Shown here in pieces: positions 1 to 10,756 of a stretch of 10,756 nt of DNA. The stretch covers positions 1 to 10,756 of the forward strand of contig CAZJUB010000041.1 of assembly GCA_964549075.1 (NCBI GenBank). Direction: 5' to 3'. The position numbers and the translations under genes are program-made. The first letter of the stretch is position 1; each line of letters begins with the position of its first letter. Below the pieces are notes generated by a model. The model searched no databases. It was not told the DNA's origin and saw nothing but the letters and a program-made list of their open reading frames with translations. Source of the DNA: an uncultured archaeon (lineage in GTDB: Archaea > Asgardarchaeota > Heimdallarchaeia > Heimdallarchaeales > Heimdallarchaeaceae).

Positions 1-857
1 TTACCAGCCCTGATCAAATCCAAGCTTTCTTAGACAACGAACATGATATGCTCAAGGAAATGTCTGATAAAATTATCGCTTCTGGAGCTAACTTAGTTCT
101 TTGCCAGAAAGGTATTGACGACATCGTTCAACACTACTTAGCTAAGAACAAGGTTTCAGCTGTTCGTAGGATTAAGAAGAGCGATATGCAAAAACTCGCT
201 AAACCTACTGCAGCAAAAATCACTACCAGCTTAGATTATTTAGAGAATTATTTAGGAAAAGCCAATTTTGCTGAAGAAAAATCAATTGGTGATGACAACA
301 TGATTTTTGTTACAGGTTGCGATTATCCTAAAGCTGTATCAATAATCATTCGAGGTGGAACTGAGCTTATAGTTGATGAAGCTGACAGAGCAATCCATGA
401 TGCCCTTTGTGTTATTCGTCAAGTAATTCATGATAAGAAAGTTGTCCCTGGCGGTGGAGCACCTGAAATTCGTATTAGTCAAAAATTAAATGAATTTGCA
501 ATGGGACATGGAAGTAAAATTCAACTTGCTATTGAAAAATTCGCAAAAGCAATGGAAATCATTCCAAGAACTTTAGCTGAGAACGCTGGTCTTGACCCAA
601 TAGATGTTCTCTCAGAGTTACATGGAAAGCACTCCCAAGACGGTCATGTATATGGAGTAAATCCATTCAAAGCAAAAGTAGATGATATGGCAAAACTTAA
701 TGTCTTTGAACCCATTTCAGTAAAGAAGCAAGCTATCAGTAGTGCTGCAGAAGCTGCAGAAATGATTCTCAGAATTGATGATGTTATTGCTGCCAAAGAA
801 CTATCTGGTGGAGGAATGCCTCCAGGTGGTCCAGGCGGAATGGATGAGGATATGTAA
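1..857 (+). CDS. ths: Thermosome (group II chaperonin) subunit, 5'-truncated by the window edge
   Basis: The frame is open from position 3 (TSPDQIQAFLD...), so ATG 48 is internal. Motifs CQKGIDD, AVRR, IIIRGG, DEADRAIHDA, VPGGGAPE, IPRTLAENAGLD, EPISVKKQAISSAAEAAEMILRIDDVI and a Gly/Met-rich tail GGGMPPGGPGGMDEDM are present. The alpha/beta subunit type cannot be assigned. Confidence 0.97.
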   Translation, partial: TSPDQIQAFLDNEHDMLKEMSDKIIASGANLVLCQKGIDDIVQHYLAKNKVSAVRRIKKSDMQKLAKPTAAKITTSLDYLENYLGKANFAEEKSIGDDNMIFVTGCDYPKAVSIIIRGGTELIVDEADRAIHDALCVIRQVIHDKKVVPGGGAPEIRISQKLNEFAMGHGSKIQLAIEKFAKAMEIIPRTLAENAGLDPIDVLSELHGKHSQDGHVYGVNPFKAKVDDMAKLNVFEPISVKKQAISSAAEAAEMILRIDDVIAAKELSGGGMPPGGPGGMDEDM

Positions 858-882
858 TATCCTTATTCTTCAATATTTTTTT
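846..882 (+). terminator. Putative terminator after the thermosome gene
   Basis: Short inverted repeat (aggatat-gta-atatcct) overlaps the stop codon and is followed by a T7 tract at about 876-882, in the gap between convergent genes. Confidence 0.35.
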
Positions 883-896
883 CAAAAACTAAAAAA

Positions 897-1115
897 TTAG
901 AGCCTATAAGTTTTCAAGGCACTTGTAACTTTTTGGAGCATTTCATCAGTGACTTTATCTGATTCCAACTCCACTATTGCTACCCAAGTTGAGTAAGCTG
1001 CTTCTCTCACTTCTTTGTTATTGTCTTTCATTCCATCTACGATAATGTCAACTACCTCAGAATTGAGTGTAGAGATTTGACTTTCTTTCTTTGTTCTGAT
1101 AGGAGTGTAAGACAT
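897..1115 (-). CDS. Small HEAT-repeat-like protein (72 aa)
   Basis: IIVDGMKDNNKEVREAAYSTW matches the HEAT consensus (L..lL.D.n..VR.aA...L). It has an ATG start and an upstream BRE/TATA-like element on the minus strand (gaaaaaacttttTAAA, about 1145-1159). Confidence 0.7.
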   Translation of the reverse strand: MSYTPIRTKKESQISTLNSEVVDIIVDGMKDNNKEVREAAYSTWVAIVELESDKVTDEMLQKVTSALKTYRL

Positions 1116-1249
1116 TTTCCCCGTGAGAAGTAGATATAGAATCTTTAAAAAGTTTTTTCAAAATCGTCAAAAACAAATGTTTTACCGACAAAAATAGCTT
1201 GTTATAGTTAAAAATGTAATGCAATAAGGAGAAGAAAAAAAAGAGTGTA

Positions 1250-2425
1250 TTACTCCTTTACTTTTTGTGCGACTTTTTTACCTAACTCTTTTGCTTGTTG
1301 AAGAATTTCGTCGGTCGGTGCACCTCTGAATTCAAGTAAAGGTTCCACTACTTCCCAATCCAACTCTTGCACATGGTCTGCTGCTTGTTGTAAGGCTCTA
1401 CCACTCCACATCGAAGAACCAAAGAATCCTACGATCCTCTCTCGCAAATCTTTTCTCTTTATCAAATGAAGATAATAAGAGGTGTTCAGAAACGGACCTC
1501 CATCATAAGTTGGAAAACCTAAAATTACTCCTTTATGTTTCCAAGTTTCTTTTATAAGATAACTAAGATGATCTTTTGAAAAATTAAGAACAGTCATAGG
1601 AACACCTTCTTCTTTGACCCCTTCAATTACACTATTAACGACTTTAGCTGTGTTACCATACATAGAACCCCAAATAATAGTTACTCCAGGTAGTGCCATC
1701 CTTTCAGATAAGCGAATGTAAAGATCAATTATTCTCTGAGGATCTTTTCTCCAGATAAGTCCATGAGCAGGTGCAATTATCTTGATATCGAGTTGGCTAA
1801 GTTTATCCATCGCTTTTTTAACATATTTAACATATTTTGCAACTATATTACTAAAATAACGGATGGTTTCTTCATAAAATATATCGGGATCACATTCATC
1901 GTCAAACAGACCAAAATCAAGTGCTTTATATGAGCCAAAGGCATCACAAGCGAAAAGAATTTTCTCTTGATTATCATAGGTTATCATCGTTTCTGGCCAG
2001 TGAACTAAAGGATCCATATAGAAAGTTAAAACTCTTCCACCTAAATCAAGAGTATCGCCTTCATCAACTGTTCTGATATTATCGGTTATACGATAAAGTG
2101 TATCAAGCATTCCAGAAGCTTTGTTTGAACAGATTATTTGTGCATCAGGAGCTTTTTCAAGAAGTCTAATAATAGAACTGCTATGATCCGGTTCTATGTG
2201 ATTCATAACTATATAATCGATTTTAAAATCTGTAATTTCTTCCACTTTTTTTAGAAATTCATCGACAAAAGGGATTTTCACTGTGTCTATTAAAACTGTT
2301 TTTTCTCCTTTTACAATGAAGCTGTTATAACTAATACCCTCTGGTATAGGCCAGAGGCCTTCAAAAAGTTCTGTTAAGTGATCATTCACTCCAACATAAT
2401 AAACATCAGGTGCTACTACTTGCAT
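1250..2425 (-). CDS. fprA: Flavodiiron protein, class A (FprA/NorV-like O2/NO reductase; metallo-beta-lactamase plus flavodoxin domains)
   Basis: Di-iron ligand motifs NHIEPDH, VHWPET, CDAFG and IAPAHG; N-terminal GISYNSF..LIDTV; flavodoxin phosphate loop SMYGNT and FGSSMWSG. Confidence 0.95.
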   Translation of the reverse strand: MQVVAPDVYYVGVNDHLTELFEGLWPIPEGISYNSFIVKGEKTVLIDTVKIPFVDEFLKKVEEITDFKIDYIVMNHIEPDHSSSIIRLLEKAPDAQIICSNKASGMLDTLYRITDNIRTVDEGDTLDLGGRVLTFYMDPLVHWPETMITYDNQEKILFACDAFGSYKALDFGLFDDECDPDIFYEETIRYFSNIVAKYVKYVKKAMDKLSQLDIKIIAPAHGLIWRKDPQRIIDLYIRLSERMALPGVTIIWGSMYGNTAKVVNSVIEGVKEEGVPMTVLNFSKDHLSYLIKETWKHKGVILGFPTYDGGPFLNTSYYLHLIKRKDLRERIVGFFGSSMWSGRALQQAADHVQELDWEVVEPLLEFRGAPTDEILQQAKELGKKVAQKVKE

Positions 2426-2560
2426 TTTTATTCACTCATATCATTTTTAATTATTAAGAATTTGAAGACAATCTCTTTAATTTAATCATGTAAAATCTCA
2501 GTAAATTTGTTTAAAAACATTAGGTTTTCTCGAACATTTAGGTAAAAATCTTCTTGTAAA

Positions 2561-2588
2561 CCAAAATTCTTAAAGTGTTTAATATAAA
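2561..2588 (+). promoter_or_regulatory. Putative archaeal BRE/TATA promoter of the radA paralog, in the divergent region shared with fprA
   Basis: ccaaaattcTTAAAg (2561-2575) and tTTAATATAAa (2578-2588) lie 17-35 nt upstream of ATG 2605. Confidence 0.4.
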
Positions 2589-2604
2589 TCTATCTTTGTA
2601 GAAA

Positions 2605-3552
2605 ATGGAACTCAAGGGAATAGATAAGAAGATAATTGAAAAGATTGAGAAAAAAGATCTTACTATTGAAATGGTTGCTGTATCCACTGCAGAAGAGCTT
2701 TCTACTCAAATAGAAATTGAAGAAAAAGAAGCTAAAAAAGTCATAAAAACTGCACAAGAGGAATTGGGAATTCAACCGATGACTGCTCTTAAATTTCTAG
2801 AACATGAATCAAAACGAGGGAAGATTACTACTTCCTCTACTGAATTCGATTCAATTCTAGGAGGAGGTATTTGGACTCAAGAACTTACTGAAGTTGCAGG
2901 TTCTTTCGGTAGTGGAAAAACTCAGTTATGCTTTCAGCTCTGCTTAAATGTTCAATTACCCGAAGAAGAAGGCGGTTTAGACGGAAATGCGTTTTTTATA
3001 GATACAGAAAGAACATTCTCACCAAGAAGAATTGTTGAAATCGCATCTTATCGAGATTTTGATGTGGAAAAAGCTTTGAGCAACATCTATGTTGGATCAG
3101 CTCTCAATACTCACCACCTCTTCAGTATTGTCGATGAACTTGAAGAAATTATTCCAGAAAAAAATATCAAACTCCTAATCGTTGATTCTTTTGCTTCACA
3201 TTTCAGATCCGAGTTTATAGGTAAGGACCGATTAGTTGAGAGACAACAAAAAATCATGCAAATAGCAGAAAAATTAACTGCCTTAGCAGTGAAATTTGAT
3301 TTAGCTGTGGTAGTTACAAACCAAATTATTGCTAATGTTGAAGAATTTCTTTTTGGAAGTCCAGAAGAACCAGCTTTGGGATTTGCGTGGGCACATAGAC
3401 CTCAGCAGAGAATATTCGTGAGAAAATCGAGAGGAAGTTCTAGAATCGCACGTTTATTCGATAGTTCTAGAATGCCTGAAAGAGAAGCTCTCTTTTATGT
3501 AACAGAAAGTGGTTTATCTGATGCACCATTCTCATCAGATTTTTATTCGTGA
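2605..3552 (+). CDS. radA: RadA/Rad51-family recombinase, divergent paralog with N-terminal helical domain
   Basis: N-terminal HhH-like domain; ITTSSTEFDSILGGGI; Walker A GSFGSGKT; EEGGLDG; IDTERTF with the catalytic Glu; Walker B LLIVDS; FRSEF; VVVTNQ; RIARLFDS. Polymerisation and L2 motifs are non-canonical (see findings). Confidence 0.9.
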   Translation: MELKGIDKKIIEKIEKKDLTIEMVAVSTAEELSTQIEIEEKEAKKVIKTAQEELGIQPMTALKFLEHESKRGKITTSSTEFDSILGGGIWTQELTEVAGSFGSGKTQLCFQLCLNVQLPEEEGGLDGNAFFIDTERTFSPRRIVEIASYRDFDVEKALSNIYVGSALNTHHLFSIVDELEEIIPEKNIKLLIVDSFASHFRSEFIGKDRLVERQQKIMQIAEKLTALAVKFDLAVVVTNQIIANVEEFLFGSPEEPALGFAWAHRPQQRIFVRKSRGSSRIARLFDSSRMPEREALFYVTESGLSDAPFSSDFYS

Positions 3553-3608
3553 AAAGAGGTTCATGAAAACTAACTCAGAAAATGTTAAAAAAGTAAATGT
3601 GTTATAGA

Positions 3609-3893
3609 TTACTTACTAATAGCAGAGTAAACTTTAGTACGTCTAGATTTGCTTATATTTTCTATAATACTGTTTGCTTCTGCTTCTTTCAGAATCTTCT
3701 TTGCTGTGCTAACTCTTATATTATACTTATCTGCTAAATATGCTGGAGTAATCCCTTTAGCTCGTTGTAGCTCAGCGTCAATTTTTTTCTTAGTTTCTTC
3801 ATCAGGTGTTAAATCTCGAATTGTAGGTGTAAATTCTACGACCAAACCGAATTTCTTTTTCTTCCTGACAACTTTTTTCTCTTGTCCAGACAT
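3609..3893 (-). CDS. rps25e: Small-subunit ribosomal protein eS25 (S25e)
   Basis: Basic N-terminus, then the winged-helix signature ITPAYLADKYNIRVSTAKKILKE...SKSRRTKVY; 94 aa fits archaeal eS25. Confidence 0.9.
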   Translation of the reverse strand: MSGQEKKVVRKKKKFGLVVEFTPTIRDLTPDEETKKKIDAELQRAKGITPAYLADKYNIRVSTAKKILKEAEANSIIENISKSRRTKVYSAISK

Positions 3894-3921
3894 TTCTCTC
3901 GATTTTGCGATTATGTGCTGA

Positions 3922-3936
3922 TTTTTAAGTTATTCG
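3922..3936 (-). promoter_or_regulatory. Putative BRE/TATA promoter of rps25e
   Basis: Minus strand reads cgaataa-cTTAAAAa about 29-43 nt upstream of ATG 3893. Confidence 0.45.
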
Positions 3937-4003
3937 ATTGAATGCTTTTTTAAAATTTGAAATCCATAGCATTTCCTTTAGAATTGAATTTCCCTTGAAC
4001 CAA

Positions 4004-4023
4004 AATCTTGATATTTCAAGGTT
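4004..4023. promoter_or_regulatory. Imperfect palindrome (possible operator) over the promoter of the URO-D-like gene
   Basis: AAtCTTGA-TATT-TCAAGgTT ends 12 nt before ATG 4036. A further half-site ccttgaa (3993-3999) is also complementary to ttcaagg (4015-4021). Confidence 0.3.
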
Positions 4024-4035
4024 AAAAGAAACCTC

Positions 4036-5028
4036 ATGGATAAGCTTGAATTACTTTTAGATACACTCAAAGGCAATAATTCTGATTATCCCCTTTTTAG
4101 TTTATGGAAGCATTTTCCCATTATCGACAGAGAACCTAATCAATTAGCTGAAGCACATGTGGAGTTCTATAATAAATATGATTTCGATTTGATGAAGATA
4201 TCTCCACACGGGAGATATCCAGTTGTTGATTATGGTTGTATTATAGACAAAGAATATGATCCTATCACTGGTAGTACAAGATGTTCAGATTGTTGTATTA
4301 AAGCAATAGAAGATTGGCAAACACTAGATTCTGTAAGTGCAAGTGAAGGAGAGCTAAGCAAGCAAATCGAGACGGTAAGACAAATTCAAAAGAAATTAGA
4401 ATTTCTCCCAAAAATGATGACAGTATTTTCTCCTCTAATGGTCGCTTCAAAAATGGATCCAAATTTAGTAAAAAACATAAGATCACATCCAGATACTATA
4501 GTCGAGTCTATGCTTATCCTTTTAGAAGATATTACTGAATATGCTGAAGCAGTAATAGATGCAGGGGCAGAAGGGATATTTCTAGCATCGCAGCATTTTA
4601 GAAAAACTGAGTTTTCGTTTGAAGAGGTTCAACGTTTTGAGATAAAATTCTTGAATAAATTTCTATCTAACATAAAAGGGAAAGCAGAATTCATAGTTGT
4701 TCATGTCCATGGTGAAAATATACAATTCAAAGAAGCAGCAAAACTTCAAGTTGATGCTTTAAATTGGCATGATAGACTAACTTGGCCGTCTCTTTCTGAA
4801 GCTTCAGAAATTTTTCCAAAAGGACTTTTAGCAGGTCTAGATGAAACCAGAACACTAGTCGATGGAAAACCAGAAGAGATTCAGAATAACGTTTTAGATT
4901 CTGTTAATCAATCGAAGAAAGCGAATAATAAAATAATTATTGCACCAGGATGCGTAATTCCTATAACTGTTCCAGAGAAGAATATAGAAATCATCACTAA
5001 AACAATAAAGAAATCTAGAGAAGGTTAG
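4036..5028 (+). CDS. Uroporphyrinogen decarboxylase (URO-D)/MtaA-CmuA superfamily TIM-barrel protein, probably not true HemE
   Basis: Motifs TVFSPL, EAVIDAGAEGIF, VVHVHG, ALNWHD, LLAGLD and IIAPGCVIP..VPEKNI. The HemE W.MRQAGR motif is absent (LWKHFP instead). Confidence 0.85.
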   Translation: MDKLELLLDTLKGNNSDYPLFSLWKHFPIIDREPNQLAEAHVEFYNKYDFDLMKISPHGRYPVVDYGCIIDKEYDPITGSTRCSDCCIKAIEDWQTLDSVSASEGELSKQIETVRQIQKKLEFLPKMMTVFSPLMVASKMDPNLVKNIRSHPDTIVESMLILLEDITEYAEAVIDAGAEGIFLASQHFRKTEFSFEEVQRFEIKFLNKFLSNIKGKAEFIVVHVHGENIQFKEAAKLQVDALNWHDRLTWPSLSEASEIFPKGLLAGLDETRTLVDGKPEEIQNNVLDSVNQSKKANNKIIIAPGCVIPITVPEKNIEIITKTIKKSREG

Positions 5029-5032
5029 ATAG

Positions 5033-5692
5033 ATGGATAAGGAAAATCAAGAGGAGAATGTAATACTTTTCAAACAACCTGAGAGAACAGGATGGAAGGA
5101 TTTCATACTCAATCTAATTTTCAGTCTCATTATGATAGCTAGTATTTATGTTTTCTTGATAGCAGATATTCTCCGTCCGGAAAATATTTCAGATTGGCTT
5201 ATCCGAAGTTTTGTTACTGTACTTCCTCTTTTAATCTTTGGAAATAGAACAATTAAAGAGATCTTCTACACTAAAGATTTCATTAAAATTGTAAATACTG
5301 AGATTCAATATAGATCAACTCCTTTTGTAATGACTGGCTTTAGAGTAAAGAAGGGGAGCATTCCAATAAAGGAGATAAGAAAATATGGTTTATCAAAAGT
5401 ACCAAGAAAACTTTCCTTAGATTTCTGGAGGCAAAAAACAAAAGCCATGCTGATTGTTCAGCTTAGAGATGGGAAAGAATACTTTATCGGAGAGTTCTTT
5501 ACAAATCAAGATTTAGCAGAAGTGTGTCTTAATATTAGAATTATCTACCCAAAAGCAAAATTCACCACTAATGTTCCGGATGAATTTCCAGAACTACAGA
5601 AAAAAGAGAAAGAGCTTTCTAAGTCCAAAAAAATACAAAAAATAACTGACACTGATGATGAACCTGAAGGTGTAGGAGTTCGTAAACGCTGA
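5033..5692 (+). CDS. Hypothetical membrane protein (two N-terminal TM helices, soluble beta-rich PH-like region, charged tail)
   Basis: Hydrophobic segments FILNLIFSLIMIASIYVFLIA and WLIRSFVTVLPLLIFG. It starts 4 nt after the URO-D-like stop, so it is likely co-transcribed. The PH-like call is a pattern inference. Confidence 0.75.
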   Translation: MDKENQEENVILFKQPERTGWKDFILNLIFSLIMIASIYVFLIADILRPENISDWLIRSFVTVLPLLIFGNRTIKEIFYTKDFIKIVNTEIQYRSTPFVMTGFRVKKGSIPIKEIRKYGLSKVPRKLSLDFWRQKTKAMLIVQLRDGKEYFIGEFFTNQDLAEVCLNIRIIYPKAKFTTNVPDEFPELQKKEKELSKSKKIQKITDTDDEPEGVGVRKR

Positions 5693-5705
5693 GGAGAGAA
5701 TACTA

Positions 5706-5720
5706 GCTTTTATTAATTAA
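5706..5720 (+). promoter_or_regulatory. Putative TATA box for the MfnF-like/longin-V4R pair
   Basis: gcTTTTATTAattaa is centred about 27 nt upstream of ATG 5740, typical spacing for a leaderless archaeal transcript. Confidence 0.45.
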
Positions 5721-5739
5721 AAAAAGAGATACTATCAAG

Positions 5740-6798
5740 ATGGAAGCTAATAACCCAGCAAGTTTTTCTGTTACTAAAAGAAATATAGCAGTATTAGATT
5801 TTGGTGTTACATCTCTTAAAATTGTTATTGTGGATCCTGTTCATCCTGAAGAACCTTTACATTTCAAACGCATATATCTCCCAATCAGAACAAAGAAAGA
5901 AGAGGTTGAAAGTGTTCTTAAAACACTCTTGCGTTCTTATGCAGATTATCACATTCGTAAGTTTATTATAACAACAACTAGTCCTCTATTTGCTTCTGCT
6001 CAAGAGACTGTAGAATTTATTGTTTTATCTGTTACTAAATTCATTCATCCTGCAAATATTACTTTCTATACACATGATGAAACATTCGTAACAGTTAATG
6101 ATGCATTAGCTAATCCAACCAAGGTAGTTTCTGTGGGTTGGAAAGCTTTAGGTAAAGGTCTCTGGCAAATGTTGAAAAAAGACGGTTTAGTTGTAGATTT
6201 CTCAACAAGGACTACAAGTTTTATTCCAATAAGAGATGGAAAGATTCTTTCTGAGTCTCAAAGTGATTTTGAAAGAATTAAAAATGATGAATTGGTTTTT
6301 TACGGTTTTCTTGAAACTAACGTTGCTTTTATACAACCAAAATTCGATTTTGATGGAGAAACATACAATCTTCCTTTCGAACCACATGCAATAACAGCTG
6401 ATCTCTTCCTCATTACAGAAGATATGCAACCGAATGATTATATTACAGACACTCCAGATAAAAAAGCAAAATTCAAAGAAGATGCAATGGACAGATTGAA
6501 GAGGATGCTCTGTATTAGTGATGATGGTTTTAGTGAGAATGATCTTGAGAAAATTGCACACTTACTTAAATTGAGAATGTTGGAAAAAATCAATCAAATT
6601 ATTAAAAAGAAACTAGAAGAATATGACCTTAATAGGATTATAATTACAGGAATGGGATCGGATTTACTCTACAAGTTTTTGTTTGATAAAAACGAATATA
6701 TAGATATTATTCAAGCTTCCGATATCCTAAAAACAGCAGAAATAAACCCATCGTATAGTTTAGCGTATATATTTGCCACAAAAAAAGATGATGAATAA
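5740..6798 (+). CDS. Hydantoinase A/oxoprolinase family (ASKHA actin-like fold) protein, degenerate homolog of methanofuran biosynthesis protein MfnF / H4MPT-linked C1 pathway protein
   Basis: Colinear resemblance to MfnF-family blocks: AVLDFGVTSLK, IYLPI, VVSVGWKA, VVDFSTRTTSFIPIRDG, SDFERIKNDELVFYGFLETNV, EPHAITAD, YITDTPD, RLKRMLC, IIITGMG. The conserved Gly/Asp motifs are altered. Confidence 0.8.
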   Translation: MEANNPASFSVTKRNIAVLDFGVTSLKIVIVDPVHPEEPLHFKRIYLPIRTKKEEVESVLKTLLRSYADYHIRKFIITTTSPLFASAQETVEFIVLSVTKFIHPANITFYTHDETFVTVNDALANPTKVVSVGWKALGKGLWQMLKKDGLVVDFSTRTTSFIPIRDGKILSESQSDFERIKNDELVFYGFLETNVAFIQPKFDFDGETYNLPFEPHAITADLFLITEDMQPNDYITDTPDKKAKFKEDAMDRLKRMLCISDDGFSENDLEKIAHLLKLRMLEKINQIIKKKLEEYDLNRIIITGMGSDLLYKFLFDKNEYIDIIQASDILKTAEINPSYSLAYIFATKKDDE

Positions 6799-8033
6799 TG
6801 GCTGAAAGAGCTGATTTGAGAAATAGAATCAATGTTATGTTGTTTCACTTCGACCAAAGACTGGGTCCAAGGTTATTATTCAATGTGGCAGAAATTCAAG
6901 ATACTCGAATTACAGCTTCTTTAACTAGACTTATGGATTTCAATTTTCTCGAGGAGAATAAAGCTTTCGTAAATGCAATGGCAAATGTTGTATATTCAAG
7001 TATGTTCTTTTCAATTCCCAATCCAATTGCAAGGGGAGGAGTGGAGCAGTTCATGCTTTCTTTTGTCATCTTTGATCCCACAATTACAGAATACCTTACT
7101 ATCTCTTCTTTAGAAGAAGAAATGTCAAAAGTAATTAGCAAACTTGTTCTCCTTTCTGAGATGTTTATAATTATAACTTATACCAATCCAGTGTTGGAAG
7201 ATTTTCCTGAAGTTGAAAATCTGCTGAAATCATTAAAAGACAATACTATCAGTATTTTTCAAGAAGTCTTTATTGGACAGATGGAGGGAACTAAAGATGC
7301 CATTTCCCAAGTTTTAGGAAAAATTGGTTTTGAAGCAGGAAAGCAAATTGCTCAAGATCTTAGAGTTGATGAGGAAGGTTCAGTTAGATCTTACACTGCT
7401 GCTTTAACTAATTCTCCAATTCTTAAAAGATGGGGAAATATTAACATTCTCCATTTTGATCCAGGAGAAAAAGTAGCTACAGTCTCAATTGACAGCTCAA
7501 TTTGGACTGAATCATTAGGAGTTATTGCCACAAAAACTTGTGCATTCATAGAGGGAATGTTAGAAGCAATATTTAGTAAAATCTTAGATGAACCCATTAT
7601 TTGTGATGAAATGAGATGTGCATCAGAGTACAGTTATGTGAAAGATTGTATATTCCAGATTGCTCCAGGAGGGAACAACAGAGAGATAAGGTCTTACAAG
7701 GAAGATCAGACAATAAAAGATATGGGGATGAAAGAAAGAGGAAAAACAATAGATGCCATTCATGCTGATATTGGAGAACAATTCTATTATGATTTAGATC
7801 CTATGATTAAGTTAATACAACTTTTCAACAAAGCTCCCTTTATTTCAGACCATTTCATAGAGCAGTCTGAAGAAGAAGTAAAGTTCCTTGTAGTATGTAA
7901 TTACTGGCGTTATCCTAATGAAATTATGTGTAATAGCTGTGAGAAATGGATAAGAAAAACTAGCAAAGTTCCAGTTAATCTACTCAAAAGTAAACACAGA
8001 ATATGCGAAATAACGTACGAAGCAGAGGATTAA
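6798..8033 (+). CDS. Multidomain protein: N-terminal uDENN/longin (folliculin/SMCR8-like) domain, V4R domain and C-terminal Cys4 V4R-like domain
   Basis: N-terminal VMLFHFDQRLGPRL and FFSIPNPIARGGVEQFMLSFV. Central GFEAGKQIA..RWG..C248..FIEGMLEAIFS..E271xxC274..C284. C-terminal C367, C378, C381, C403. The start overlaps the upstream stop (TAATG). Confidence 0.75.
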   Translation: MAERADLRNRINVMLFHFDQRLGPRLLFNVAEIQDTRITASLTRLMDFNFLEENKAFVNAMANVVYSSMFFSIPNPIARGGVEQFMLSFVIFDPTITEYLTISSLEEEMSKVISKLVLLSEMFIIITYTNPVLEDFPEVENLLKSLKDNTISIFQEVFIGQMEGTKDAISQVLGKIGFEAGKQIAQDLRVDEEGSVRSYTAALTNSPILKRWGNINILHFDPGEKVATVSIDSSIWTESLGVIATKTCAFIEGMLEAIFSKILDEPIICDEMRCASEYSYVKDCIFQIAPGGNNREIRSYKEDQTIKDMGMKERGKTIDAIHADIGEQFYYDLDPMIKLIQLFNKAPFISDHFIEQSEEEVKFLVVCNYWRYPNEIMCNSCEKWIRKTSKVPVNLLKSKHRICEITYEAED

Positions 8034-8041
8034 TCTTGGTT

Positions 8042-8314
8042 CTATCTAGTATCAAAAAAAATTTTGAGTTTAGTCTGAACAACTTTTGTTTCCACTTTTT
8101 TCCGAATACTTTTACCAGATTTATATTGATTTACCCACCAGGTTTTTATTCTAAGATCCTTTCCAACAGCGCTTTTAGGTATCCAAACAGGTTCTAATGT
8201 TAAACCATCAACTATGCCATAAAAGGATTTTATAGAATCGACAAACAGATAATCTATCCTGTAGTCTGATAATTCTTCCTCTTCTCTTATTTGATGAATA
8301 ATTTGCGACATCAT
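8042..8314 (-). CDS. Hypothetical 90-aa protein with WxPKS motif and C-terminal PIP box
   Basis: ATGA overlap with the upstream TPR gene; VWIPKSAV...KTWW core; QTKLKIFF at 8054-8077. Confidence 0.75.
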   Translation of the reverse strand: MMSQIIHQIREEEELSDYRIDYLFVDSIKSFYGIVDGLTLEPVWIPKSAVGKDLRIKTWWVNQYKSGKSIRKKVETKVVQTKLKIFFDTR

Positions 8315-8763
8315 AGTTTCTCCAGTAATCTTCGAGTAAAGTCAATAATGAGCAATTCATCACAGCTATATGTTTGAAGGAATCTTTCTGCCCTATTCAA
8401 CCATAATTTAAGAATTTCTTTATCTGGATTGTCCATAGAAGCTAAAGTAAAAAGAACCTTAGAAGGTAGACGTGGAGCTAAATCTGGATTGGAATTTGTT
8501 TCCCATGCAAGAGAAAAATAACCTAAAGCGATATCTAATTCATCACGAATTAAGTGTAAATTACCTAAGTAGAAATAGGTCAGATTAGATGACAAATCTG
8601 AGAGAGATAGTTCTTGAAAGAAACGTATGGCAGAATCGATTTTTCCTTGTTGAATCAGGTTGAGACCTATAGTGAGGAGTTGGTTATATTCAAAATCAAA
8701 TAAAGGAGAGGAATTGTGTTTCTTTTCTTTTTTTGATTCTAAAGTCAACATGATTACTTTCAT
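8311..8763 (-). CDS. Tetratricopeptide-repeat-like protein; start probably ATG 8763 (or 8751) rather than TTG 8799
   Basis: TPR-like helices LLTIGLNLIQQGKIDSAIRFFQE and TYFYLGNLHLIRDELDIALGYFSLAWE. A minus-strand TTTTATAC at 8783-8790 lies inside the called 5' extension and fits a promoter for the downstream ATGs. Confidence 0.75.
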   Translation of the reverse strand: MKVIMLTLESKKEKKHNSSPLFDFEYNQLLTIGLNLIQQGKIDSAIRFFQELSLSDLSSNLTYFYLGNLHLIRDELDIALGYFSLAWETNSNPDLAPRLPSKVLFTLASMDNPDKEILKLWLNRAERFLQTYSCDELLIIDFTRRLLEKL

Positions 8764-8853
8764 TAAAGAGTCTAGTAAAATAGTATAAAAACCCAACAAG
8801 AATCGCAGGACAATCTTTTGTTAATTAAGTTTGTTTTTGAAGAAAAATCACAT

Positions 8854-8869
8854 CGTAAAAACTTATAAT
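8854..8869 (+). promoter_or_regulatory. BRE + TATA promoter of the first DUF1624 gene
   Basis: cgtaaaaa-cTTATAAt ends 25 nt upstream of ATG 8895. Confidence 0.55.
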
Positions 8870-8894
8870 CTACACGTTAAAACTGTCTCTATCA

Positions 8895-10427
8895 ATGAAA
8901 AGAATAGTCACTATAGATGTCCTTAGAGGAGTTGCTATTTTCCTCATGACCATTTTTCATACTTGGACAAATGTAGTTGACTTAAGTCCTTACTTTAATG
9001 CGGATATATCTACATTGAATCCACTTATTTTAATCCCTGGAGCAATCTTTTACATACTAGGACATTCCCGAACATTTTTTCTCTTTATATCGGCAATAAT
9101 TCACCAATACAATTTCATGAAGAAATTAGAAAGAGGAGATAATCCAGAAAAACTCCTATCAACGAATATTTTCAAAGGTTTTGTTGTTTATTTATTAGGA
9201 ATAATTAGAGAAGGATTTCTCAGCCCTTGGGGAACAATCAACGACCTTATCTTAACAGGTAAAATTAGAGCGACCGATTTAAGGTTAGCTTATCTTTTTG
9301 AAACATTACAAATAATTGGATTATCTATTATAGCATTAACTATAACAAGTTATATTTTCTTTAAATTAGGAATACATAATAAATCGTGGATTTTCTTCAT
9401 CTATTCAGCTGTATTGGCAGCTATTTTTATCTTTTCTGCACCATATCTTCATCAAGCAATAGTCGATTATCTAGGTTATGACATACGAAAACAAGGATCG
9501 CATGCAAGAGATTTTCAAAACGTTTCTGAATACTTTACGCGTTTCTTCTGGATGTCAATGGCTGGTCCTGAAAGTCCAATTTTTCCAAATTTCGGAGTGA
9601 CTTTCATAGGAGGAATCTTTGGTTACTTTTTAGCTAAACCTAAACCTTCTAGAAAAATCTTAGACTATGGAGCAATTGCAGCTACTATGCTTTTGATTGG
9701 TGGAATTTTGATGTTTATTTATGTCTATGATGCTCAATTTAACATCAACATGCGTATTCATGAAACCTGGTATATGCTAGCAAATATGGGTTTGCAGATT
9801 TTTTATTTAATTACGCTTTTAGCTATATTTGAATTTAGGCCAAAGGCAGATTTAGAGAAATATGCACGTCGAACACGATTTATACGTAGATGGTCTATAG
9901 TAGCTTTGACAATCTATATGATACAGTTTGTAGATGTCTTTATGCGTATTTATTGCACAAGAACTGTTGGTTTTAATTTTACAATTTGGCACAATATAGG
10001 AAGAGGTTGGTCAATCGTAGGGCAACCAATACAACCTCCGTTGTATGGAGGATATTTCATAATCAATTTTATAACTAGGCATCAAGTAGGTATGGCTTGG
10101 TCTATATTCATGATGATAGTTGTAGCAGTAGGTTTTGATATTATCATTCGCTTATGGGAGAAAATCAGATTTATTGGAACTTGGGAATGGTTTTTGATTA
10201 AATTCATACGATTGGTTGCAGGTAAGAAGAACTATGATTCAGCTAGAATAAAAGTTCAAGAATCTCTTTACGATTTAGAACCTATCTCCTTTGCGTTACC
10301 AAGAAAAAAGAGGTTACAGAAGTTATTTAAAAAACTGATAAAAAAATTAAAACAGAAAATGCAAAAGCCAATAAAGATAGTAAAACAATGGTTAATGAAA
10401 TTAAAATTAAAAATAAAGAAAAAATAA
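8895..10427 (+). CDS. DUF1624 / heparan-alpha-glucosaminide N-acetyltransferase (HGSNAT)-like polytopic membrane acyltransferase
   Basis: N-terminal signature KRIVTIDVLRGVAIFLMTIFH; FFLFISA; ETLQIIG; PIFPNFG; ALTIYMIQ; GTWEW; many hydrophobic helices. The last ~40 aa may be out of frame. Confidence 0.85.
   Translation: MKRIVTIDVLRGVAIFLMTIFHTWTNVVDLSPYFNADISTLNPLILIPGAIFYILGHSRTFFLFISAIIHQYNFMKKLERGDNPEKLLSTNIFKGFVVYLLGIIREGFLSPWGTINDLILTGKIRATDLRLAYLFETLQIIGLSIIALTITSYIFFKLGIHNKSWIFFIYSAVLAAIFIFSAPYLHQAIVDYLGYDIRKQGSHARDFQNVSEYFTRFFWMSMAGPESPIFPNFGVTFIGGIFGYFLAKPKPSRKILDYGAIAATMLLIGGILMFIYVYDAQFNINMRIHETWYMLANMGLQIFYLITLLAIFEFRPKADLEKYARRTRFIRRWSIVALTIYMIQFVDVFMRIYCTRTVGFNFTIWHNIGRGWSIVGQPIQPPLYGGYFIINFITRHQVGMAWSIFMMIVVAVGFDIIIRLWEKIRFIGTWEWFLIKFIRLVAGKKNYDSARIKVQESLYDLEPISFALPRKKRLQKLFKKLIKKLKQKMQKPIKIVKQWLMKLKLKIKKK
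9975..10106 (+). repeat. Degenerate in-frame internal duplication with a 90-nt period in the DUF1624 gene
   Basis: 9975-10016 (NFTIWHNIGRGWSI) versus 10065-10106 (NFITRHQVGMAWSI): 29/42 nt identical by hand count. Confidence 0.7.
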
Positions 10428-10454
10428 GTTTATGTTAAAGAAATTATATCTATC

Positions 10455-10473
10455 TCTAAAAATTTTTATAAAA
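10455..10473 (+). promoter_or_regulatory. Putative BRE/TATA promoter of the second DUF1624 gene
   Basis: tctaaaaa-tTTTTATAAAA lies about 22-40 nt upstream of ATG 10495. Confidence 0.5.
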
Positions 10474-10494
10474 GACTTCAAATGAAATCTCCAT

Positions 10495-10756
10495 ATGAGA
10501 AGATTAACATCTATTGATTTTTTACGAGGAATAGCTATATTCTTCACTCTTGTTTTTCATTTCCTCTTTACCAACTGGGATGCATTTGCTAATACTAATA
10601 TCGATGTGATTCTAAACAAAGGAGGAGTTCCTCTACTTATTGTTGCGATACTTATAGCTATATTTATCCATTGGAGAGGATTTTTCCTGATGATATCAGC
10701 CATTGTCAACTTCTATGCAATGGAAAGAGCATTGAAAAAAGGCAAGAATATCTGGG
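10495..10756 (+). CDS. Second DUF1624/HGSNAT-like membrane protein, 3'-truncated by the window edge (not in the ORF track)
   Basis: Hand translation gives MRRLTSIDFLRGIAIFFTLVFHFLFTNWDAF...IFIHWRGFFLMISAIVNFYAMERALKKGKNIW, colinear with the N-terminus of 8895..10427 (RIVTIDVLRGVAIF..FH; HSRTFFLFISAI; MKKLERG). Confidence 0.9.
   Translation, partial: MRRLTSIDFLRGIAIFFTLVFHFLFTNWDAFANTNIDVILNKGGVPLLIVAILIAIFIHWRGFFLMISAIVNFYAMERALKKGKNIW

Follow-up and report, generated by a model that had tools for sequence, protein, structure and literature searches.

A small beta-barrel protein with a C-terminal PIP box: a predicted PCNA client from a multi-copy family of Heimdallarchaeaceae

Introduction

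The PCNA-interacting (PIP) box is defined as QXXhXXaa, with Q at position 1, L, I or M at position 4 and aromatic residues at positions 7 and 8, and archaeal clients of the sliding clamp that carry it at the C-terminus include Fen1, the RFC large subunit, PolB, the Y-family polymerase, NreA and NucS (PMC4929162). Outside the core enzymes, the same review names only NucS, NreA/B and TIP as characterized partners (PMC4929162). TIP is a protein of 64 amino acids, found only in the Thermococcales, that inhibits PCNA-stimulated PolB and Fen1; in its proposed layout, a PIP motif at the N-terminus is connected to a small, beta-rich domain by a short unstructured stretch (PMC4929162). Here, we describe a protein of 90 amino acids that consists of a small predicted beta-barrel, a basic linker and a C-terminal PIP box, and that is encoded in a 10,756-nucleotide stretch of DNA (hereafter the window) from an uncultured archaeon of the Heimdallarchaeaceae (GenBank assembly GCA_964549075.1, contig CAZJUB010000041.1, positions 1 to 10,756). 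By its motif and by modelled docking, this protein is predicted to be a PIP-box client of PCNA.

TIP is the closest analogue by architecture, as a very small, non-enzymatic and lineage-restricted archaeal partner of PCNA. The two differ in that the PIP box is C-terminal in the Heimdallarchaeaceae family and proposed to be N-terminal in TIP, and in that the former is a multi-copy family of the Heimdallarchaeaceae, whereas TIP belongs to the Thermococcales. Homology to TIP did not emerge from a comparison of the sequence profile with PDB chains, which returned five weak matches, none of them TIP (the best, with an E-value of 0.38, was an AP-1 sigma subunit and is irrelevant), a TIP chain being present in the PDB. 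With the larger archaeal PIP-box clients, the window protein shares the QXXhXXaa motif at the extreme C-terminus behind a basic flank and, in the model, the same pocket on the clamp. Each of those clients, however, is an enzyme or a larger protein from a known family, whereas the family described here consists of proteins of 73-108 amino acids that contain nothing but an unannotated barrel besides the tail.

A looser likeness connects the family to p21(CIP1) and PAF15/p15, which are small proteins that contact the clamp through a single PIP box, and some paralogue tails (QKTMTDFL, QKTMTDYF) resemble the box of p21. Unlike the family, which has a conserved folded domain, these eukaryotic proteins are largely disordered, and no homology is implied. 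The window protein thus appears to belong to a new family within the known class of PIP-box PCNA partners, outside TIP and every named family tested. Full-text literature searches on PCNA partners of archaea, Asgard archaea and Heimdallarchaea, which did not cover supplements, returned no paper on this family.

The C-terminal PIP box

A preliminary description of the window, made from the letters alone, had pointed to a PIP box close to the C-terminus, preceded by a basic stretch and by an aromatic core containing VWIPKSAV...WW. Each of these elements is there as described: the octamer Q80-T-K-L-K-I-F-F87 and the position given for it are exact (Table 1), the basic stretch KSGKSIRKKVETK occupies residues 65-77, and the core pattern is present as stated. 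Following F87, only D-T-R precedes the stop codon, so that the C-terminal end reads KKVETKVVQ80TKLKIFF87DTR.

For a census of the family, a hidden Markov model built from 9 sequences was compared with all open reading frames (ORFs) of 63 loci, yielding 67 family ORFs, 62 of which were counted as full-length (ending in a stop codon and reaching the C-terminal third of the model). With the motif written as Q..[LIMV]..[FYW][FYWLIVM] and sought within the last 25 residues, it is present in 54 of these 62 ORFs, and in 56 when position 8 is left free. Counted over distinct full-length sequences, 53/61 carry it, whereas 2000 shuffles of the tails gave 0.47 on average and 5 at most. The conservation of the terminal motif, which was critical to the earlier proposal, therefore extends over orthologues as well as paralogues, and a QxxLxxF[F/I/L] tail is kept in paralogues down to ~25-30% identity.

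Among the carriers, the octamer takes 37 forms, and between 0 and 7 residues follow it. In a Q-anchored comparison, the information content is concentrated at Q (4.32 bits), L (3.78) and F/Y (3.44), against 1.5-2.1 bits at the x positions, and K or R prevail four, three and one residues ahead of Q. The linkers between octamer and core differ among paralogues in both length and sequence. This variety of octamers, combined with the varied linkers, argues for selection on the motif itself. The invariance of Q80 in the alignment, on the other hand, is there by construction, because the members were picked for the motif.

The same kind of tail can be evaluated within the proteome of the source genome (3.2 Mb, 32% G+C; labelled G000). 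A strict PIP motif within the last 16 residues occurs in 24 of its 3421 ORFs of at least 70 amino acids. Ten of these 24, long ORFs with polar x positions, were scanned against Pfam; the other 14 were left out of the scan, including ORFs of 569, 560 and 544 amino acids with the motif in hydrophobic tails. Fen1 of this genome ends in QKSLDSYF, NreA in QTKLDMFL, the Y-family polymerase in QKTLSQFF, an RFC/Rad17-like AAA+ protein in QSSLESFI and a Hel308-like C-terminal fragment in QKQLDDFF. PolB (L095, C2:20194-24192), a protein of 1332 amino acids that contains a LAGLIDADG-domain intein, ends in QKSLDNWF. Because the scanned ORFs include PolB, Fen1, NreA, the Y-family polymerase and the RFC-like ATPase, a C-terminal PIP box mostly marks genuine clamp clients in this proteome.

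Three more of the ten scanned ORFs encode proteins outside this set: a DUF72 protein (C74:500-1366, L104) ending in QQKLADFF, a DUF2797 protein (C50:4014-4931, L102) ending in QQSLSEFF and an RMMBL-domain protein (C9:48329-49345, L101) ending in QTLLESFF. These are candidate non-core clients of PCNA. The last of the ten, with the PIP-type ending QKTLDFWL-GKN, is a protein of 630 amino acids (L105 on C57, 5080-6972, plus strand) that consists of many ~60-residue repeats with weak matches to the Pfam family HNH_repeat ("homing endonuclease associated repeat"). Its gene and that of one family paralogue are divergent, and genes for giant HEAT-repeat proteins of 1730 and 1000 amino acids come after it.

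Modelled docking on PCNA

One PCNA gene (C98, 261 amino acids) was identified in the source genome. Its product (20-row alignment) was modelled together with the C-terminal part of the window protein, residues 56-90 (41-row alignment), giving interaction prediction scores from aligned errors (ipSAE) of 0.80, 0.79 and 0.80, against 0.01 for the best control, although for a textbook pair of PIP box and PCNA a high score shows likeness to solved complexes and not binding. Of 80 solved complexes, 58 reach this mark, as do 2 of 110 mismatched pairs. The runs share at least 93% of their contacts, and the predicted local distance difference test (pLDDT) of the partner is at least 58. Residues 72-87 of the partner contact PCNA residues 42, 45-49, 127-133, 232-233 and 249-260, and the contacts of lowest error are those of residues 80-86 with PCNA 42-49, 233 and 249-254. 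This site corresponds to the canonical PIP pocket of solved complexes. In such an arrangement, QTKLKIFF would fold into a short helix and fill the hydrophobic pocket that lies beneath the interdomain connecting loop of a PCNA monomer, while the stretch ahead of the PIP box would pair with the C-terminal tail of PCNA.

It is likely, based on motif and model together, that the tail docks on PCNA. The earlier suggestion of a factor associated with the sliding clamp is thereby supported at the level of prediction, by conservation and by the placement of the tail in the pocket of the genome's own PCNA. A different view of the tail would be that it is a conserved amphipathic C-terminal helix that packs on its own barrel or on some other partner, and is not a PCNA motif at all. 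Position 8 of the motif is indeed often aliphatic (V, I, L or M in 31/53), and one intact paralogue ends in QTKLSLFS. The spacing of Q, L and aromatic residue and the K/R flank, however, match those of the host's own clamp clients, the AlphaFold2 monomer leaves the tail off the barrel with a disordered linker between them, and the complex model scores 0.80 against 0.01. A helix that serves another purpose is thus rather improbable.

The gene and its reality

The 90-residue ORF opens with ATG and closes with TAG at 8042-8044 on the minus strand. Since the codons of the two terminal phenylalanines of the motif sit inside a run of eight A residues (plus strand 8054-8061), the preliminary description had cautioned that an assembly indel there would remove the motif. 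The run is indeed there, and it is free of indels in the contigs of all four other public runs (4/4). The X6 and X7 contigs match the window exactly over the part that they cover. The X9 and X10 contigs, from a different study, represent a strain of ~96% identity that differs within the motif by I85N, which falls on an x position, and by a silent exchange in the codon of Q80; their indels are confined to 8035-8049, past the motif. The DNA occurs in salt-marsh or marine-sediment habitats, and no RNA data set was listed as containing the stretch.

Orthologues form eight protein clusters of 73-99% identity. One of the orthologues is named at NCBI as Candidatus Heimdallarchaeaceae archaeon, and a single-protein search adds one in a metagenome-assembled genome named "Candidatus Heimdallarchaeota archaeon". 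Seven orthologues were compared in 21 pairs for the ratio of nonsynonymous to synonymous substitution rates (dN/dS); it could be computed for 16 pairs, where it ranges over 0.04-0.29, dS being saturated in the other five. The 90-residue gene is under purifying selection and is a real gene. An ORF that is not a gene, or an artefact of assembly at the homopolymer, might have been suspected from the shortness of the ORF, from the position of the run within its last codons and from the lack of any family match for the window protein in Pfam, PHROGs, NCBIfam and PADLOC. Against this stand the dN/dS values, the eight clusters of orthologues, dozens of in-frame paralogues and the intact run in 4/4 other runs. 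The indel-free run and the dN/dS values refute this explanation, which has virtually no likelihood left.

Table 1. Features of the 90-residue gene and of the genes adjoining it, in window coordinates.
Feature	Position	Strand	Basis
90-residue gene (beta-barrel, linker and PIP box)	8042..8314, stop codon included	-	ORF, orthologues, dN/dS
PIP box Q80-T-K-L-K-I-F-F87	8054..8077	-	sequence; Q80 = 8075-8077, F87 = 8054-8056
Flexible basic linker, residues 65-79 (KSGKSIRKKVETKVV)	8078..8122	-	pLDDT, paralogue variation
Folded core, residues 15-66	8117..8272	-	AlphaFold2 pLDDT 83-94
Upstream TPR-like gene, 149-162 amino acids, start uncertain	8311..8799	-	weak TPR_2/TPR_1 Pfam matches
Convergent gene for a 411-residue V4R-domain protein	6798..8033	+	Pfam V4R E 4.5e-7, 30.3 bits vs cut-off 31

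The folded domain

In the AlphaFold2 model of the monomer (41-row alignment, mean pLDDT 77.9), the core is composed of a long beta-hairpin (residues 15-26 and 30-35), strands at 43-46 and 55-57 and a helix at 58-66. It harbors a signature, W44-x-P46-K47-S48 together with K57-x-W59, in which W44 and P46 are invariant and K47, K57 and W59, as well as V50 nearby, are conserved in at least 90% of the 41 sequences. The model drops below a pLDDT of 50 at residues 71-77 and ends in a short helix at 83-89, which places the PIP motif in a flexible terminal segment beyond the folded domain.

Structural relatives of this domain are few and distant. Foldseek found no match in the PDB at E <= 0.001, the best E-value being 1.0, and among 48,161 chains compared with VIA-align, the highest Z was 3.3 (1sf9, 38 residues, root-mean-square deviation 1.9), followed by SH3, chromo and KOW-type chains at Z 2-3. 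The likeness in fold, as judged from the predicted structure, would thus be that of a generic small barrel, and of no named family. Small barrels of this type raise the question of DNA binding, as SH3-like barrels are found in the DNA-binding proteins Sul7d and Cren7. A nucleic-acid-binding module tethered to PCNA, in which an SH3-like barrel and the basic linker hold on to DNA behind the clamp, would be consistent with these fold neighbors, with the conserved tryptophans and lysines and with the net charge of +7 over residues 65-90 of the window protein. The barrel itself, however, is neutral in the window protein (net charge 0; over 41 members, from -6 to +4 around a median of 0), the median charge of the tail is only +2, and the fold matches are weak (Z <= 3.3). 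The conservation of one surface motif in all paralogues and the lack of net charge make a protein or peptide a likelier ligand than DNA. The barrel itself probably does not bind DNA, and a DNA-binding module behind the clamp is very improbable.

The preliminary description had also likened the core pattern to small uncharacterized beta-barrel proteins of viruses and prokaryotes, a link that is weakly supported. In BFVD, the fold matches uncharacterized phage proteins (E 0.008-0.05, probability 0.96-1.00, template-modelling score 0.41-0.56), including models from Ochrobactrum phage vB_OspP_OH and Xanthomonas phage RiverRider. The PHROGs 8389, 12732 and 29577, which are of unknown function, are matched weakly (E 1e-4 to 5e-3) by distant relatives of the barrel from metagenomes; three such relatives, P0041, P0044 and P0042, match phrog_8389/phrog_12732 at E 1e-4 to 3e-3. 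The window protein itself matches none of the PHROGs at E <= 0.1. Neighbors in the ESM Atlas are unnamed and mostly hypothetical proteins of Uroviricota (scores 0.84-0.91), and can serve as leads only. A viral origin was considered and rejected, as tblastn with the window protein or P0041 found no match in 50,697 phage records, and no relative was found on IMG/VR contigs. We know of no function and no PIP tail for the matched small proteins of phages. The likeness to them thus consists of the PHROG matches of distant relatives and the weak BFVD matches, and is weakly suggestive as a lead, no finding.

Distribution of the family

The family is narrow. A profile search of 1.84 billion cluster representatives returned 37 proteins at E <= 1e-3, all of 35-156 amino acids. 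With a single protein as the query, 24 of 30 genomes of the same taxonomic family were matched, against none of 30 genomes taken from the remaining families in the order and class. With the 41-sequence profile, 22/28 Heimdallarchaeaceae genomes were matched, against 1/272 other genomes of the phylum; by genus, the matches fall in 20 of 22 genomes of the genus g1, in both genomes of g2 and in none of the four genomes of three other genera. Carriers have 1-8 matches per genome, several of which contain internal stops. The source genome has three intact copies, the window gene on C41 and two on C57 that end in QTKLSLFS and QSDLDQFF, and three decayed ones (C108, C161 and C141), among which one has kept the ending QSSLDHFY. 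These patterns suggest a narrow, undescribed multi-copy family that would have arisen and multiplied within two genera of the Heimdallarchaeaceae.

The sole match among the 272 genomes outside the Heimdallarchaeaceae (L122, 1607-1810, plus strand; genome G208, of another Asgard family) is a protein of 67 amino acids that contains FWVPKS...RWFVE and ends in a PIP box, QRKLEEFF. Among the distant metagenomic relatives, P0032 has an extra Cys-rich N-terminal module and ends in QKSVDEFF, and in P0035, P0037, P0039 and P0043 a Cys-rich module is joined to the barrel without a PIP tail. A protein related to this N-terminal module, Cys-rich (CCLNC...CLCYNCKCKNC) and 98 amino acids long, is encoded on a metagenome contig (L119, 1241-2849); QITLNKFE stands close to its end, a P-loop protein of 444 amino acids comes next, and the arrangement looks like the replication module of a small mobile element.

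Fusions of the family protein to other domains were sought and dismissed, as the matches in the library are all of 35-156 amino acids. One fused form is an ORF of 248 amino acids (L121, 1358-2104, minus strand, on contig C100 of G005), in which a Ras/Rab-like small GTPase runs into a shortened copy of the barrel (...TEKAFQALIEEFTDKPIWIPKSVVDPETKLIKQ...). It lacks a PIP tail and is adjoined by a second small GTPase gene, and is probably a decayed barrel copy fused by read-through.

Gene neighborhoods

In the window, the start of the 90-residue gene overlaps the stop of the upstream 162-residue ORF in the sequence ATGA. Because of this overlap, the two genes are probably co-transcribed. The upstream protein is TPR-like by matches below the Pfam cut-offs (TPR_2, E 2.7e-4; TPR_1, E 4.9e-3). 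The same order, with the TPR-like gene first and the family gene overlapping it, is found in G000, G023, G020 and G001, and the reverse order, with the family gene first, in G019, G007 and G004; a TPR remnant is present in G011. That the two genes adjoin each other in both orders hints that the proteins are functionally linked. An obligate partnership was discarded, as at least 8 genomes have the TPR-like gene at a distance from the family.

The V4R gene converges on the 3' end of the 90-residue ORF, and its protein cluster flanks a family member at five loci. One of these is L062, with the V4R protein at 519-1757, where a distant paralogue (23% identity by tblastn) and a TPR-like remnant lie in swapped order. 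As this paralogue and the swapped remnant stand beside the same V4R protein, the locus seems to have exchanged its family copy. The other genes of the window encode a thermosome fragment, a RadA-like protein, ribosomal protein S25e, and URO-D-like and hydantoinase-like proteins. On the plus strand, tandem genes at 8895-10427 and 10495-10755 encode two paralogous multi-pass membrane proteins whose N-termini are similar (MKRIVTIDVLRGVAIF... and MRRLTSIDFLRGIAIFF...), the first of which has a weak match to HGSNAT_cat (E 0.079).

Across the 63 loci, contexts vary widely among paralogues. The recurrent neighbors are MsrA (9 loci), the TPR-like protein (7), an AAA_15-like ATPase (6), an unknown protein of 235 amino acids (6), V4R (5), an unknown protein of 304 amino acids (5), a NosD/beta-helix protein (5), subtilase (4), HEPN_AbiV (4) and a YaaC-like protein (4). 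DNA similarity outside the ORF is mostly confined to orthologous loci of different genomes, indicating that the copies reside in stable chromosomal places; a few short matches (54-280 nucleotides) connect otherwise differing loci. A mobile cassette was rejected, as no long shared flanking repeat was seen. Large unannotated proteins with R-x4-H strings, reminiscent of HEPN by eye, are encoded at L002 (46-1464, plus strand), L004 (63-1397, minus strand) and L003 (1-225, minus strand), and such proteins beside source-genome paralogues, those next to the two C57 copies included, have no match in Pfam or PADLOC.

Some of these neighbors invite an explanation in terms of inhibition. The family protein could be a blocker or regulator of the clamp like TIP or p21, which occupies the PIP pocket or destabilizes the ring and so slows replication or displaces clients; the paralogues would be brakes expressed under different conditions, some of them perhaps tied to defense or stress loci. 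The protein is small and non-enzymatic, it is lineage-restricted as TIP is, and its canonical tail is modelled in the pocket used by the polymerase and Fen1. Paralogues lie beside HEPN_AbiV (4 loci), YaaC-like (4), AAA_15-like (6) and subtilase genes (4), and the turnover of genes and the decayed copies are consistent with such a role. A pure plug, however, needs no strongly conserved folded domain, and many copies reside in stable syntenic loci under purifying selection. Orientation relative to the defense-like neighbors varies, so that co-expression is not implied, and of nine neighbors compared with PADLOC, only the AbiV-like protein gave a clear match (E 3.1e-5), that of the AAA_15-like ATPase to AriA being weak (E 0.0088) and the family protein having none. 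A clamp blocker is therefore unlikely, though it keeps an appreciable chance. A related idea, that the family protein is the antitoxin of a HEPN toxin, was dropped, as AbiV-like or YaaC-like neighbors occur at only 8 of the 63 loci, in mixed orientation, and the window protein matches 0 PADLOC families.

Discussion

The explanation that best accounts for the observations as a whole is a non-enzymatic adaptor tethered to the clamp, to which we assign about an even chance. In such an adaptor, a flexible, mostly basic linker of ~14 residues would tie the PIP box to the beta-barrel-plus-helix domain of ~50 residues. The W-x-P-K-S / K-x-W surface of the barrel, which is kept in all paralogues, would bind one common protein or peptide ligand, and this ligand would be held at PCNA-loaded DNA. 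The TPR-like neighbor is one candidate for it. The adaptor role taken by itself is plausible, though it falls a little short of an even chance.

Several points weigh against the adaptor as the overall explanation. Eight of the 62 full-length members lack the motif, most of which look truncated, and the members are related to each other, hence the motif counts overstate independence. The alignment A2 was drawn from motif-bearing members, with L002 as the exception. The score of the complex may reflect likeness to solved complexes. The adaptor role is something that we infer, for a barrel whose structural and sequence relatives are not informative. Finally, the TPR-like gene is found apart from the family in the genomes mentioned above, and gene contexts differ between paralogues.

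The archaeal PCNA interactome is poorly known beyond the core enzymes, and the family adds to it small, non-enzymatic proteins that are tagged with a PIP box. The expansion of paralogues within single genomes is unusual. The Heimdallarchaeaceae are the archaeal group nearest to the eukaryotes. Should the barrel bring in a partner or the protein block the clamp, the family would show how replication is controlled, or coupled to other processes, in Asgard archaea. A broader and quite speculative reading, which we regard as more doubtful than the clamp blocker alone, is that the paralogues are small replication brakes or clamp adaptors, placed at differing stress, defense and housekeeping loci, that share the PCNA hook and a barrel surface reading a common mark at the fork, for instance a peptide or a protein that carries a modification. 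If this were true, paralogues acting as brakes or adaptors would provide a prokaryotic precedent for the regulator-rich PCNA interactome of eukaryotes.

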